From assembly GCA_027078545.1 (NCBI GenBank), contig JALWXN010000004.1:384001-448000 (forward strand): a DNA stretch of 64,000 nt, written 5' to 3'. Shown piece by piece: positions 34,194 through 41,018 of this stretch. The translations under genes and the position numbers were made by a program. Numbering within the stretch: position 1 is the first letter of the stretch; each line of letters opens with the position of its first letter. Origin of the DNA: Nitrososphaeria archaeon. Its GTDB lineage: Archaea; Thermoproteota; Nitrososphaeria; Geothermarchaeales; JDFR-13. A model generated the notes under the pieces. It saw only the letters and a list, made by a program, of their open reading frames with translations, had not been told where the DNA came from and made no database searches.

Positions 34194-35273
34194 CTACTCC
34201 TTGACAGCCCTGCTTATCCTCTGTATAGCTAGGTGTATGACGATCTCCGTCTCCCTCTGGTATGGATTCCTCCTCCTCAAGGTCTTCCCATCTGTATAGA
34301 TCTCTATATACCCTGTCCTACCCGCTATGCTGGAGAGTATGGTCAGGGCCTCGTTATACATCCTTGTCTTGGCTAGGCTGTATGCGAGTAGGGATGCCTG
34401 TAGCGGGTCGTATATAGGGTGGTTCTCCCTGCCGGATGGGCTCTGGCATAGTGTCCTATCCTCTATATGTAGAGCCCTATACATATGTCCCATGTGGCTC
34501 CTGAGCCTCTCGTCCCCCCTATAGGCTAGGGGAAGCACTATCGCCCAGCCGTCTATATGTGTGGCTAGACTCCTGGCCGAGGTTGTGAGTATATGGGTTA
34601 TGAATCTCCTCCCGTCCCAGAAGCTGTCCTCTATCCTGCTTATCAGGTTGGTAAGGATCTTCTCATACTTCTCGGAGTCCCCACCCTCCAGCGCCGCGTT
34701 GTAGGCCTTCTCCAGGGCGGCTAGGTAGGCGAGGTTTGTGGATAGGAGATTCCCACCCCTACCCATGCCTAGCCAGTCCTCGTCGGCCTCCTGCTCGACG
34801 AGCCAGTTCCTATTGATGTCCCTCCTCCTTAGGTATTCAAGCCCCTCTATGGCTGTGGGTAGGAGGTCTTCGAGGCCCCCTGTGAAGAGTATGTATTCGA
34901 GTAGGGATGCCGTGGCTAGGGCTGTGGCTAGGGGTGATGGATACCTGGAGTAGGTGGTCTTCCTCCCCTGGGAGATTGTGTCTGGGAAGCTTCCCGCCGT
35001 GTAGTCATCGACCACCTCTACGCCCCGGGGGGATCTATACTCATCGCCCCTTCTGAGCTGGGCCTTCTCGAGCCTGGGTATCGCCTCGGAGGCTAGTGTG
35101 TAGTAGGCAACCTCATCCTCCTCCCTAAGTAGGAGTAGGACTAGGCTGTGTATCCTCGTGTCTAGCGCCTTGTCTAGGCTCCTCTCAAGGCTGGTTATGT
35201 TGTGTTTATACCTCTTGGATATCTCGGCTGTTGCGTCTAGTCCCCTCCTGTATAGGTCGACCCTGATCTCCAT
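34194..35273 (-). CDS. Divergent six-hairpin (alpha/alpha)6 glycosidase-like protein
   Basis: EGLEYLRRRDINRNWLVEQ...DW, STNLAY..AL, IEDSFWDG pattern. Confidence 0.5.
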   Translation of the reverse strand: MEIRVDLYRRGLDATAEISKRYKHNITSLERSLDKALDTRIHSLVLLLLREEDEVAYYTLASEAIPRLEKAQLRRGDEYRSPRGVEVVDDYTAGSFPDTISQGRKTTYSRYPSPLATALATASLLEYILFTGGLEDLLPTAIEGLEYLRRRDINRNWLVEQEADEDWLGMGRGGNLLSTNLAYLAALEKAYNAALEGGDSEKYEKILTNLISRIEDSFWDGRRFITHILTTSARSLATHIDGWAIVLPLAYRGDERLRSHMGHMYRALHIEDRTLCQSPSGRENHPIYDPLQASLLAYSLAKTRMYNEALTILSSIAGRTGYIEIYTDGKTLRRRNPYQRETEIVIHLAIQRISRAVKE

Positions 35274-36496: not shown

Positions 36497-37318
36497 ATGG
36501 CCAGGGTACTACTAACCAATGACGATGGATACTTCTCACCCGGGATAAGGAGGATGATCGACGTCCTCTCCCAGTTCACCGACCTCGTGGTTGTATGCCC
36601 TGAGCAGCAGAGGAGTGCTGCTGGGCTCAGCGTGACCCTCCACAAGCCGCTCAGGATCAGGGTCGCCAACTATAGGAACCAGACCTGCTACCTCGTCAAC
36701 GGGACTACCGGTGACTGTGTGAGCCTAGGCCTGTTCCACATCCTTGAGAAGCCACCCGACATGGTTGTATCGGGGATAAACATAGGCGAGAATATAAGCC
36801 TGGTCGAGTTCTTCATGAGCGGTACCGTGGCGGGTGCACTCCTAGCCGCTATCCACAATATCCCCAGCATATCCTTCTCGAAGAGTGTGGAGAGCGCCGA
36901 CGTTATCGGTGGGCGTGTAAGGAGCGGGGGTTTCGAGGAGGCCGCCAGGATAGCTGGTGAGATAGTGAGGTACGTCCTTGACGAGGGCCTCCCAGAGGGA
37001 GTCGACATGTTCAACGTTAACTTCCCCAAGAAGATTACCCGTGAGACTAGGATAGTGGTAACCCGCCTAGCCAGGCTGAGCCTAGTAACCAAGGTCTATG
37101 TGAGGCACGACCCCAGAGGGAGGGAGTACTACTGGATATGGGGGGAGAAGTTCAAGAACTTCCCCAGGGGGACCGATGGATACGAGGTATTCATAAATGG
37201 GAACATATCCCTAACACCCGTCTCACTATCCAGCCTATCAACAACCCCAGACCTGAAGAAGGTGCAGAGAGTAGCAGACGCCGTTAACGAGATATTGGAA
37301 AGCTATTTCAGAAGCTAA
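36497..37318 (+). CDS. surE: 5'/3'-nucleotidase SurE
   Basis: LLTNDDG, VSGINIGEN, SGTVAGA, NVNFP. Confidence 0.96.
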   Translation: MARVLLTNDDGYFSPGIRRMIDVLSQFTDLVVVCPEQQRSAAGLSVTLHKPLRIRVANYRNQTCYLVNGTTGDCVSLGLFHILEKPPDMVVSGINIGENISLVEFFMSGTVAGALLAAIHNIPSISFSKSVESADVIGGRVRSGGFEEAARIAGEIVRYVLDEGLPEGVDMFNVNFPKKITRETRIVVTRLARLSLVTKVYVRHDPRGREYYWIWGEKFKNFPRGTDGYEVFINGNISLTPVSLSSLSTTPDLKKVQRVADAVNEILESYFRS

Positions 37319-37522
37319 TGTTACTTAAAGCAATCATAATTATTTAGGATTTTATCCTCCGCGATTTAATATTAAACGATAACCTGAAACTAATTATAAT
37401 TAGTTGAGTACTATTTTGAGATACCCCTGTCAAAATACAGCTTCTCAATATATACATCTCTGACTAAAGTAAATGTCACATATTATGTTGGTCAAAGATA
37501 GTGATTTTAAGTGGTGATTACC

Positions 37523-37642
37523 ATGAAGTATAATCCACCCGAAATAACATCAATGGACTTACTGTTAGCGCCATTATGCCTCTGTAATTGCAACTGTGGA
37601 CTGCTGTCAGGTTCGGGAGCTGGAGGAGGGAGTGCTAAGTAG
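37523..37642 (+). CDS. RiPP precursor peptide, 39 aa, Cys/Gly-rich core (absent from ORF track)
   Basis: MKYNPPEITSMDLLLAPLCLCNCNCGLLSGSGAGGGSAK; GGTGA SD at 37513-37517; YxxPxI leader; first gene of the operon. Confidence 0.88.
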   Translation: MKYNPPEITSMDLLLAPLCLCNCNCGLLSGSGAGGGSAK

Positions 37643-37658
37643 CCGCTGGTGGCTAAGC

Positions 37659-38567
37659 GTGCACATAAGAGTCATCAGCATCACAAAGACATACGGTGCT
37701 AGTGTCAGAGCCGTAGAATCCCTATCCTTTTTTATAAACTCAGGAGAATCTGTAGCGCTAATAGGACCCAATGGGGCAGGAAAAACGACAACTATACATA
37801 TCATTCTTGGGCTATTGAAGCCTGATGAAGGAGAAGTTTATATAGACGGAGTCAACATGATGGATGAAAAGGAATCATCGGAAATACGTTCTAGAATAGG
37901 TTTTGCACCACAGAACATCGCGTTGGATTTTTTCCTTACTGTTGAGGATAACATCGAACTGTACCTGAAGTTAAATGGACTATCAAGAGCGAATAGGCGA
38001 GAAAGAACAAAAAGGATACTTGAGTTAATGGGTTTATATGAATATAGGAATAGGAGGGTGGAGACGCTTTCAGGAGGATTAGCCAGACGTGTTCACATAG
38101 CGAGGGCACTGGCTCTCGACCCTGAATTGATTATTTTGGATGAGCCTACTGTTGGATTGGACCCTGTTTCAAGGAGACTTTTCTGGGAAGCTCTCAAGGG
38201 ATACATTAAGGAGTCGGGTGCAACACTCCTGTGGAGTAGCCATTATTTGGAGGAGATCGAAAGAAATGCCGATCGAGTGATTCTACTAAATAGAGGCAGA
38301 AAGTTGATGGACGCTCCTCCTGGAGAGATTGTATCCAAGTTTTCGAGACCTGTACTCGAGCTAGAAATACCTAATGAAGAGGTTTTAAAGTCACTTACAT
38401 CGAGATTCGGCGGTAACTATGTAAATGGAAGGCTCATCATTGACGATGTCGACTGGGATGATCTGCCCAAGGTTATAGCAAGCCTGAGTAAGCTTGGTGC
38501 TGAGGTACGGCTGTTGAGGTGGGGTAGTAAGTCACTTGAGGAGGTGTATCTCGAGGTGATGTCATGA
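37659..38567 (+). CDS. ABC exporter ATP-binding subunit (DrrA/CcmA-like)
   Basis: GPNGAGKT, LSGG, LDEPT, SSHY; probable GTG start 37659 after GGTGG. Confidence 0.93.
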   Translation: MHIRVISITKTYGASVRAVESLSFFINSGESVALIGPNGAGKTTTIHIILGLLKPDEGEVYIDGVNMMDEKESSEIRSRIGFAPQNIALDFFLTVEDNIELYLKLNGLSRANRRERTKRILELMGLYEYRNRRVETLSGGLARRVHIARALALDPELIILDEPTVGLDPVSRRLFWEALKGYIKESGATLLWSSHYLEEIERNADRVILLNRGRKLMDAPPGEIVSKFSRPVLELEIPNEEVLKSLTSRFGGNYVNGRLIIDDVDWDDLPKVIASLSKLGAEVRLLRWGSKSLEEVYLEVMS

Positions 38568-39316
38568 GTATTGTTATAACCCTTATCGAGAGGGAGTTCA
38601 AAATACTGTTTAGGAGTAAGTTGCTTATGCTTCTCATGATAGCTCAGCCAGTAATTTTGATATTCTTGTTCGTCCTGTCTATGGGTAATGTAGTCGGTGA
38701 GATAACTTATCGGGGTATCACTGTTAGCTATGTGGAGTTCATGGTTCCAAGCGTGGTTATTCTTACCCTTATGTTTGTTACTATGATGGTGAGCCAATCC
38801 GTTTTCAACGAGAAGTTTTCCAACATGCTGATAATCCTGTTATCTACGAGGATGACAGCTAGGGACTACATCGTAAGTAAATTGATAACCAACACTTTTA
38901 TATCATTAACACAGGCGATGCTTATGCTAACAGCTTATCTATTGATTATAGGAGGAACCAACATAATATCAATTATATATGCTCTTCCACCAATAATAAT
39001 TGCATCACTGACACTTTCGGGGATATATCTCTCTCTTCTAGGGTATCTCAAAACAATTTCAGCTTTCTCGAGTGCCGTAAACATACTTACATTGATAATG
39101 ATATATTCTGCACCTCTTTTCTACCCTTTGGAGGCGATGCCTTTCCCTCTAAATTTTGCTAGTAATGTTAATCCTTTAACATATATTGTTGAATCAACAA
39201 GGATAGGTTATTTATTAAAGAGTTTTGATGTATCAATATGGATATCCTCGATAATTTGTATAATCTTCATATTACTATCCATTCATACAATGAAAAATAT
39301 GCTTACGGAGGTTTAA
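38564..39316 (+). CDS. ABC-2 type exporter permease
   Basis: 6 TM; REFK, YVEFMVP, FYPLEAMP, NPLTYIVE; ATGA overlap with the ATPase. Confidence 0.92.
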   Translation: MSIVITLIEREFKILFRSKLLMLLMIAQPVILIFLFVLSMGNVVGEITYRGITVSYVEFMVPSVVILTLMFVTMMVSQSVFNEKFSNMLIILLSTRMTARDYIVSKLITNTFISLTQAMLMLTAYLLIIGGTNIISIIYALPPIIIASLTLSGIYLSLLGYLKTISAFSSAVNILTLIMIYSAPLFYPLEAMPFPLNFASNVNPLTYIVESTRIGYLLKSFDVSIWISSIICIIFILLSIHTMKNMLTEV

Positions 39317-39318
39317 AA

Positions 39319-40713
39319 ATGATAGAAAGAAGAATGATAATTCAGGATACTCCACTTGAAAAATTAAGGGAGAACTTGAAAAGATTAATATGCATCAAAT
39401 TTAAAAATCTCTATGTGCTTTTTGATCCAGAGACAGTCAGTTGGATCCCCATTAGTGACGATGATATCGCAATGCTTAGAGAATTTTATTGGGGTGGCTA
39501 TCTAAGAGAGAAAAAAGGATTTCATCTGATTGGTAGGATGATATCGTCCTTAATTGGAGTGTCTTATAGAATAATTTATAATAAATTACTTCCCTACCCA
39601 TCAGTGTATTATTTGGAAATCACAAAGGGTTGCAACCTTAGATGTGTTTACTGTTATATAGGTTCTGCGCCTGAATTGCTCAGTTATAAGGGAAAGATGA
39701 AAGTTGAGAACTGGCTTGAACTGATAAATCAAATAAATACCCTTGGGGGCAGAGAAGTAATTTTTACTGGAGGCGAACCATTACTAAAGTATGATGACAT
39801 TTTATCTATCGGAAAGTATGCAAAGGAACATGGTCTTATTACATCTCTCATTACCAATGGTGTTTTGCTGAATTCTAAGAGAGTTGAGGAGCTCTCTAGG
39901 ATTATAGATAACATCACTGTTAGCCTGGATAGTCATATAGGTTCAGTTAATGCGGTTACAAGAGGTTATAGAGAGACACATAGAATAATATATTACATTA
40001 AGAGCCTCCTCGAGAAGGGAGTAAATATTTATGTAAATTGTGTTGTAACAAGAAGTAACGTAAATAGCTTGACTAGTTTCTTGGATCATTTACAAAAGAT
40101 CGGAGTGACCCCTGATAAAATAAAATTTATTCTCATGGCACCAGCAGGAAGGGCTTTAACATTGGATCATTTCTCAGTCAACCCAATGGATTTAGTCAAA
40201 GAGTCATTTTTATATAACCTTAGGATGGGAGTCATTCCTAATCACAGTCGTACGGCTTTTAATAAATTTTCAAGAAAGTACATGTGTGGGGCTTCCGTAT
40301 CTGAATTATATATAGATTGTGATGGAAACGTTTATCCATGTAGAATGTTGGTGACAAAGTCTGGACATCTTGGAAATGTCCTTAAAAACTCATTGAAGGA
40401 CATACTTGACAGTTCCAATAGGTATAATTTTGTTGATTCGATATCCAAACCCAATTTAAAGGTATGTAAAGATTGTATTTATAGAAATGTATGTGCTGGG
40501 GGGTGCAGAGGCAATGTCATAGGTTCCCAAGGTAATTTGACGGATCCTGATCCCATTAATTGCATTATCGTTAAAAATACTTTTCCTCTGTATATGATAG
40601 TCGAATCCTACGGCTTAGAGGTTCTTAGAAATCTGAATGATAGAAATGTATTTCGACAAGTGGAGGTTGTTAGTTCATGGTTGGAAGAAGATTTAGACCT
40701 AAAGAAAGTGTGA
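39319..40713 (+). CDS. Radical SAM/SPASM peptide maturase
   Basis: CNLRCVYC, TGGEP, TNG, VSLDS; SPASM CGA..IDCDGNVYPC..GN..CKDC...CAGGC...C; ATG 39319 after GGAGG. Confidence 0.93.
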   Translation: MIERRMIIQDTPLEKLRENLKRLICIKFKNLYVLFDPETVSWIPISDDDIAMLREFYWGGYLREKKGFHLIGRMISSLIGVSYRIIYNKLLPYPSVYYLEITKGCNLRCVYCYIGSAPELLSYKGKMKVENWLELINQINTLGGREVIFTGGEPLLKYDDILSIGKYAKEHGLITSLITNGVLLNSKRVEELSRIIDNITVSLDSHIGSVNAVTRGYRETHRIIYYIKSLLEKGVNIYVNCVVTRSNVNSLTSFLDHLQKIGVTPDKIKFILMAPAGRALTLDHFSVNPMDLVKESFLYNLRMGVIPNHSRTAFNKFSRKYMCGASVSELYIDCDGNVYPCRMLVTKSGHLGNVLKNSLKDILDSSNRYNFVDSISKPNLKVCKDCIYRNVCAGGCRGNVIGSQGNLTDPDPINCIIVKNTFPLYMIVESYGLEVLRNLNDRNVFRQVEVVSSWLEEDLDLKKV

Positions 40714-40949
40714 TTATAAATAGGTCTGAGTTCGATGACAGGTTTTTAATCTATGATCCAAGAAGTGGGAAAATGTTTTTCACTAATGAAATCGGTGTCT
40801 TAATTTGGTATTTGCTCAGATGTTATGAAGTGGATAGAATTGTAGAAGCTGTTTCCATACTTACAGGAGAGAAGATGGAGACTATTAATAAAGATCTAAA
40901 TAACTTTTTAGAAAGACTTAAGAAACTAGGGTTAGTTGAAATAGAGTAA
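40677..40949 (+). CDS. PqqD-family RiPP recognition element (RRE)
   Basis: 90 aa; LIYDPRSGKMFFTNEIGVLIW.LL...DLNNFLERLKKLGLVE. Confidence 0.9.
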   Translation: MVGRRFRPKESVIINRSEFDDRFLIYDPRSGKMFFTNEIGVLIWYLLRCYEVDRIVEAVSILTGEKMETINKDLNNFLERLKKLGLVEIE

Positions 40950-41018
40950 TTGCCAGTATCTGCATTGACACACGTTATAATCTTCTTAAAGCTAAATACC
41001 ATTGTTAGTGGTGTTCCT

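Follow-up and report, generated by a model that had tools for sequence, protein, structure and literature searches.

The closest described relatives of the peptide considered here are the hairpin sactipeptides StsA and BlaA. Members of the StsA group (Streptomyces sparsogenes; NCBIfam NF045558 and NF045574) share a CxCxCx4GxGxG core (Precord et al. 2023, PMC10288494). Processing of StsA by StsB together with the RRE StsC leads to a 6-Da loss, and desulfurisation places deuterium at C2, C4, C6, G11, G13 and G15; the 2023 study showed the hairpin to be closed by Cys-S-to-Gly-C-alpha links in the pairs C2-G15, C4-G13 and C6-G11 (PMC10288494). Inner rings have to precede outer ones and do not need the outermost ring for their own formation, and StsB activity requires all six of its proximity residues (PMC10288494); a WxxP motif is needed for binding between StsA and StsC (PMC12710340). 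BlaA (He et al. 2022) is a two-ring form with an NMR structure, as described in PMC10288494. We found no report of an activity for StsA.

In archaea, subtilosin A-like clusters have been predicted in Thermococcus celer and T. nautili and read as horizontally acquired (bioRxiv 10.64898/2026.07.27.741052). Our literature search found no experimentally confirmed archaeal sactipeptide, the Thermococcus clusters being predictions too. Here we describe a locus in a 64,000-nucleotide stretch of DNA (the window) from a Nitrososphaeria archaeon, in which an earlier note had proposed a four-ring hairpin sactipeptide. Comparison with homologous systems makes it quite probable that the precursor is converted into an StsA/BlaA-type hairpin sactipeptide with Cys-S-C-alpha(Gly) bridges.

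Results

A cassette of five genes in a low-GC insert

The features of the locus are collected in Table 1. All five genes are intact in the window copy; four are preceded by archaeal-type GGTG/GGAGG ribosome-binding sites, and the start of the permease gene overlaps the stop of the ATPase gene. The gene set is shared with the true StsA-family loci L214 and L216 and with a third locus, L048, and homologues of the ABC ATPase (31-39% identity) are placed after the enzyme gene in all three. The RRE is the genome's only PqqD match above the cut-off, and its best PDB match is the lasso RRE TbiB1 (E 0.0033). No protease gene lies within the cassette. A mechanically called ORF at 37596-38567, which overlaps the precursor core in another frame, was rejected as an over-extended version of the ABC gene, which probably begins with the GTG at 37659, behind GGTGG.

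Table 1. Features of the sactipeptide-like locus (window coordinates)
Feature	Coordinates	Strand	Basis or remarks
Precursor peptide gene, 39 aa	37523..37642	+	translation; aligns with homologous precursors
Core ladder C19-G36, C21-G34, C23-G32, C25-G30 round the GLLS loop; predicted sactionine hairpin	37577..37630	+	codon 19 begins at 37577, codon 36 finishes at 37630
ABC transporter ATPase, DrrA-like	37659..38567	+	start inferred from ribosome-binding site
ABC-2 permease	38564..39316	+	PF01061; homologues in L048, L214, L216
Radical SAM/SPASM maturase, 464 aa	39319..40713	+	CxxxCxxC and seven SPASM cysteines; best NCBIfam model StsB
Stand-alone RRE, PqqD family, StsC-like role	40677..40949	+	PF05402, 38.4 bits
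Low-GC insert, boundaries approximate	37319..40990	.	between surE and the geranylgeranyl reductase gene

The genes on either side (tyrS, surE and the geranylgeranyl reductase gene) have a GC3 of 0.65-0.70, the five cassette genes one of 0.29-0.44. Three further genomes of the genus lack the cassette and have the reductase gene directly behind surE, and contigs from two vent runs carry the empty site, with a joint from 37290 to 40991. The GC3 contrast, the surE-reductase adjacency and the empty-site contigs thus establish the cassette as a genuine insert of 3.7 kb and speak against a binning error. This accessory element was acquired laterally; the present strain has an intact copy, its neighbours a damaged one or none. 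Its DNA is present in hydrothermal-vent metagenomes of two studies, with no RNA dataset among the sources listed. No terminal repeats were seen at the insert, and a sigma-70 promoter scan, which is unsuited to archaea, gave nothing above chance. Elsewhere in the window, a 359-aa ORF divergent from tyrS (34194-35273, minus strand) is without an NCBIfam match.

Mirror register of the precursor

The translated precursor carries Cys at positions 19, 21, 23 and 25 and Gly at 26, 30, 32, 34, 35 and 36. This core follows a leader with YNPP at residues 3-6, a YxxP form of the RRE-recognition motif, and the peptide ends in SAK. The ATG lies 6 nt downstream of a GGTGA ribosome-binding site, and in-frame GTGs at 37511/37514 are possible alternative starts. 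The earlier note had paired Cys19/21/23/25 with Gly36/34/32/30 as mirror images, and this register was confirmed, spanning exactly codons 19-36. The axis with a residue sum of 55 is the sole one on which all four Cys face Gly; sums of 51, 53 and 57 give three of four pairs.

In the six frames of the 1.24-Mb genome, the four-Cys/four-Gly pattern occurs once against 1.3e-5 expected, and the three-pair pattern once against 0.008. When the whole precursor was shuffled, four of four pairs arose in 1.7e-4 of trials. With the Cys residues fixed and the Gly-rich tail shuffled, the full set appeared at a frequency of 0.079 on any axis and 0.016 on the axis with a four-residue loop; taken by itself, the outermost pair therefore counts for much less as evidence than the complete motif does.

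Homologous precursors

Seventeen homologous precursors, which represent about seven lineages and not 17 independent cases, were gathered from the loci of the enzyme's relatives and by a profile search. Seven have two Cys and ten have three. Cys-Gly mirror pairs round a four-residue loop are kept in all of them while the spacer residues vary, the register of one (L213), with an extra Cys in its loop, being assigned by eye. The earlier note had let its reading stand or fall with the Gly spacing in homologues, and for the inner rings that spacing is retained in 17/17. The Gly positions of the window core are conserved among the homologues and its Asn positions are not. In the Bacillus two-Cys precursors the loop is GLLI, near-identical to the GLLS found here. 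Counted from the leader aromatic (of [YW]xxP), the first Cys is 16 residues away in 13 homologues and 17 in the remaining four, irrespective of how many rungs there are.

Several of these loci have features of their own. Bacillus mycoides plasmids (L215:2876-3529) carry five unannotated tandem precursors of 29-30 aa, each with two Cys, placed upstream of a radical SAM gene. The three-rung precursors at L050:5503-5610 and L213:6471-6578 end in an extra C-terminal Cys. Both clusters also encode an AMP-binding enzyme, a BtrH-like protein on the exporter side and a further radical SAM enzyme; L050 has in addition YcaO and an S26 peptidase, and L213 a carrier protein and a B12 radical SAM enzyme, so that their products are likely to be further-tailored StsA-like peptides. 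Two precursors at L212 (3318-3458 and 8372-8521) contain two tandem CxC-loop-GxG units and adjoin two radical SAM/SPASM genes with the proximity profiles YSISQS and YTISHL. A double-hairpin form is possible for these peptides, and a similar double unit is present in P0028.

Among the readable matches in overlapping samples of 401 same-phylum and 201 same-class genomes, a real CxCxCx4GxGxG precursor was found in the window genome and its sister species (G002) alone, about a dozen matches lying outside the readable set. A scan of metagenomes for the four-Cys/four-Gly DNA motif yielded no precursor at any of 120 loci; it was swamped by microsatellite-like repeats and is therefore uninformative on the frequency of four-rung forms. 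The protein scan of viral contigs gave no match, and phmmer with the precursor against 1.8 billion representatives returned two long repeat proteins and nothing else. Three clusters of 40-47 aa in the ESM Atlas, at 0.83-0.85, are leads only. The StsB model at E 1e-52 had no match in 401 genomes of another phylum, where the control was equally silent.

Active site and relatedness of the maturase

The cassette combines radical SAM and SPASM domains with an RRE (PF04055, PF13186 and PF05402), the combination expected of a sactipeptide locus, and the seven SPASM Cys of the enzyme are invariant in the alignment. StsB (NF045574) is the top NCBIfam model, with 173.5 bits against 112.1 for the next, far below its cut-off of 625, which the L214 and L216 enzymes pass with 744 and 738. 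The precursor scores 13.6 bits with NF045558 (StsA; cut-off 42), where the true member L214 reaches 77.8, and 13.8-14.4 bits with NF045559 (StsA-related; cut-off 75). In the comparison with NCBIfam precursor models that the earlier note had recommended, the matches to StsA-type models are thus weak, and precursor and enzyme alike fall far short of the cut-offs. The enzyme is very divergent, with at most 34% identity to any protein found. In the tree it sits on a long branch whose placement is without resolution, as is the donor, and a group profile scarcely separates it from other SPASM enzymes, scoring it at 277 bits and an enzyme of different residue profile at 269.

The proximity residues are more informative. 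In the window enzyme they are Y113, T150, I178, S202, R342 and M343 (YTISRM), at positions that map onto those named for CteB. StsB-family members above the cut-off have YTISKL, which makes four residues identical and two conservative. Two enzymes adjoining three-Cys precursors (P0004 and P0007) have YTLSRM and share the final RM with the window enzyme, while the profile is SSVSHA in PqqE and F, F, T, S, H, Q in CteB. A basic residue at the fifth position was found in none of about 40 other archaeal SPASM enzymes. By these residues, the best available predictor, the enzyme would work like StsB, standing outside the strict StsB or StsA families. A mycofactocin assignment (MftA/MftC) was rejected, the precursor ending in SAK and not in Val-Tyr, and the MftC profile being LGSSPF.

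The closest enzyme homologue found (31% identity) is encoded at L048:2375-6455, together with an RRE, an ABC ATPase, an ABC-2 permease and two 39-aa precursors; a LuxR/GerE regulator and flanking transposases are additional at that locus. Two archaeal SPASM enzymes of a single genus (L021 and L026, in genomes G175 and G074) have fairly high StsB-model scores and the profiles FSISHW and FSTSHW. No StsA-like precursor was found within 1.5 kb at the archaeal loci L021, L026, L008 and L004.

State of the cassette in sister populations

In G002 the precursor start codon is changed from ATG to ACG at 37524, and the RRE gene has a +1 insertion at 40769, a frameshift that recurs in two runs. Contigs of two runs carry a 1079-nt deletion (39445-40525) that removes enzyme codons about 43-403, and empty-site alleles co-occur with damaged alleles in the same vent samples. 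Between the window genome and G002, silent changes per codon amount to 0.026 in the cassette and 0.194 in the flanks; the cassette was therefore shared more recently than the host genes diverged. The cassette shows 18 replacement and 19 silent changes, the flanks 30 replacement and 208 silent ones (Fisher p 1.8e-6). The core codons are identical in the two genomes, which at such low divergence is no evidence of selection.

Discussion

The pairs C21-G34, C23-G32 and C25-G30 correspond to C2-G15, C4-G13 and C6-G11 of StsA (PMC10288494), so that the link to StsA, which the earlier note had suggested, is supported. Together with the conserved Gly spacing, this connectivity supports the nested Cys-S-C-alpha(Gly) hairpin in the register that had been proposed. 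The chemistry and connectivity themselves come from homologues alone, with two and three rings. By analogy with these homologues, the stand-alone RRE would bind the YNPP leader and present the precursor to the radical SAM/SPASM enzyme. The 5'-deoxyadenosyl radical would abstract the C-alpha hydrogen of Gly30, and Cys25, kept in place by the first auxiliary cluster at its open site, would form the S-C-alpha bond. The enzyme may then proceed outwards to C23-G32, C21-G34 and probably C19-G36, each step costing 2 Da; this order is possible because in an antiparallel hairpin every second residue points to the same face. The unmodified 39-mer has a calculated monoisotopic mass of 3897.83 Da, which four rings would bring to 3889.76 and three to 3891.78. 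The product would be exported by the ABC-2 transporter and, since the cassette is without a protease, its leader would be cut by a host enzyme or retained. Such a hairpin would be small and rigid, with a rather hydrophobic character, and would most likely be secreted to act as an antagonist or a signal.

How many rings are closed is the main point to be weighed. The earlier note had proposed four bridges; the inner three agree with the StsA register, and the fourth, C19-G36, is likely. We give four rings, C19-G36 included, a slightly better than even chance on the pattern of the precursor and its homologues. In the window precursor, the leader aromatic is 16 residues from C19 and 18 from C21, so C19 fills the first-Cys slot of the family. 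Alternate residues of a hairpin face one side, and a fourth rung therefore needs no new geometry. If the enzyme closed only C21-G34, C23-G32 and C25-G30 (-6 Da) and left Cys19 free or otherwise used, the product would be an ordinary StsA-type sactipeptide. This outcome is unlikely, though several points speak for it: the members characterised or recovered all have either two or three rungs, there is no four-ring homologue among the 17 recovered precursors in which co-conservation of C19 and G36 could be seen, the fourth alternating Cys of L213 is no rung, and G36 lies inside a GGG run, in a tail whose shuffling yields four of four pairs on some axis in 8% of cases. It would, however, put the first bridged Cys at a distance of 18, outside the 16-17 of all 17 homologues, and a Gly in the next outer place that is unaccompanied by a Cys is uncommon (3/17).

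Other chemistries fit less well. Ranthipeptide-type links, from Cys to the beta-carbon of Asn22/Asn24 or Ser as in the short rings of NxxcB- or PapB-like systems, would suit the NxxC arrangement of N22-x-x-C25, the 77-105 bits obtained with the PapB, WgkB and SCIFF models and the presence of CteB among the top PDB matches; yet the homologues keep Gly and not Asn, and the proximity profile matches StsB, unlike that of CteB, so we regard such links as quite improbable. Slightly less credible still is a shifted register with a sum of 53 or 57, giving three rings round a loop of two or six residues, or several registers side by side, as the GAGGG tail would allow. Three of four Cys-Gly pairs do form on both axes, but StsA and BlaA have been shown to have a four-residue loop (PMC10288494), and all homologues are compatible with it. 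The least credible reading is that the peptide is no thioether RiPP at all and serves in metal binding, disulfide formation or azole formation. Alternating Cys residues are able to bind metals, and YcaO occurs in some related clusters. Against this, the genome, which is 92% complete, gave no YcaO match, metal binding leaves the mirror conservation of Gly unexplained, and a YxxP leader, an RRE and an StsB-like enzyme stand together in one insert. A separate matter, compatible with the predicted chemistry, is whether the cassette is a silent passenger, modifiable in principle, from which the archaeal host makes no mature product. The lost start codon and frameshift of G002, the enzyme deletion, the co-occurring empty sites and the replacement excess all point that way. 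The five genes are intact here, though, with archaeal-type ribosome-binding sites at four of them and overlapping ATPase and permease genes, and the replacement excess may lie wholly on the damaged lineage, with low divergence inflating the ratio; on balance we think a silent cassette unlikely, if less so than the three-ring outcome.

The most far-reaching reading of the StsA/BlaA-type cassette is that it is active in the vent archaeon and yields a fully stapled four-rung hairpin through a very divergent, probably heat-tolerant StsB-like enzyme acting on a modular ladder. We hold this only tentatively, at somewhat less than even chances. If true, the four-rung hairpin would be longer than any described Cys-Gly ladder that we found, and the family would be modular, with the first Cys fixed 16-17 residues from the leader motif and rungs added beyond it. 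Heat stability, which the earlier note had thought plausible, found no specific support as an adaptation; RumC1 tolerates 70-100 C (PMC8172795), and such stability, plausibly a general property, does not by itself point to adaptation.

Work published in 2022-2023 had already described the chemistry, spacing and topology, and sactipeptide cassettes have been predicted in archaea of hot habitats (bioRxiv 10.64898/2026.07.27.741052). Neither the i+2 Cys-Gly ladder nor the presence of four S-C-alpha links is a novelty; the ladder was already shown for StsA and BlaA (PMC10288494), and thurincin H and ruminococcin C1 are precedents for four links (PMC10288494 ref 22; PMC8172795). With the chemistry known, the surprise is limited. 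New here are the probable fourth rung, the divergent enzyme and the archaeal host. A 39-aa peptide, one enzyme and one RRE form a compact, synthesizable test of ladder extension to four rungs and of the determinants of register, and an enzyme of vent origin could prove a robust tool for peptide stapling. Present, decayed or missing in populations that live side by side, the insert also illustrates on a small scale how a natural-product cassette moves through archaea.

Comparison with known systems

The window peptide resembles several known systems to different degrees. Thurincin H and ruminococcin C1 have non-Gly acceptors, the Cys spacing of thurincin H is wider, and their precursors are unrelated. 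Four sactionines and a nested hairpin topology are what they have in common with the predicted product (PMC10288494 ref 22; PMC8172795); RumC1 forms two separate hairpins. The Thermococcus clusters are alike in their minimal set of precursor, radical SAM enzyme and ABC protein without a protease, and in their hot-habitat archaeal hosts, but belong to the subtilosin family with bulky acceptors and to a different host lineage. BlaA/BlaB, compared by description, offers the same CxC-x4-GxG hairpin, and the Bacillus mycoides peptides of L215 share the YxxP leader, the 16 residues to the first Cys and a GLLI loop; both have two rungs where four are predicted for the window peptide, and the L215 cluster comprises five precursors and an S24/S26 peptidase.

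The StsA system is the closest. Residues 21-34 of the window precursor read CxCxCx4GxGxG, and an aromatic-x-x-Pro leader motif stands 16 residues before the first Cys, as from W-15 to C2 in StsA (PMC12710340). Both systems have a discrete RRE and a SPASM enzyme with Y, T, I and S at proximity positions 1-4, and the StsA-family members L214 and L216 have an ABC exporter alongside, as in the window cassette. In contrast to StsA, the window precursor has a fourth Cys/Gly pair, YxxP in place of WxxP and a short basic tail, and its enzyme has R/M in place of the K/L of StsB at positions 5-6. The archaeal host, the gene order precursor-ABC-enzyme-RRE and scores far under the family cut-offs further distinguish this locus from the StsA system.
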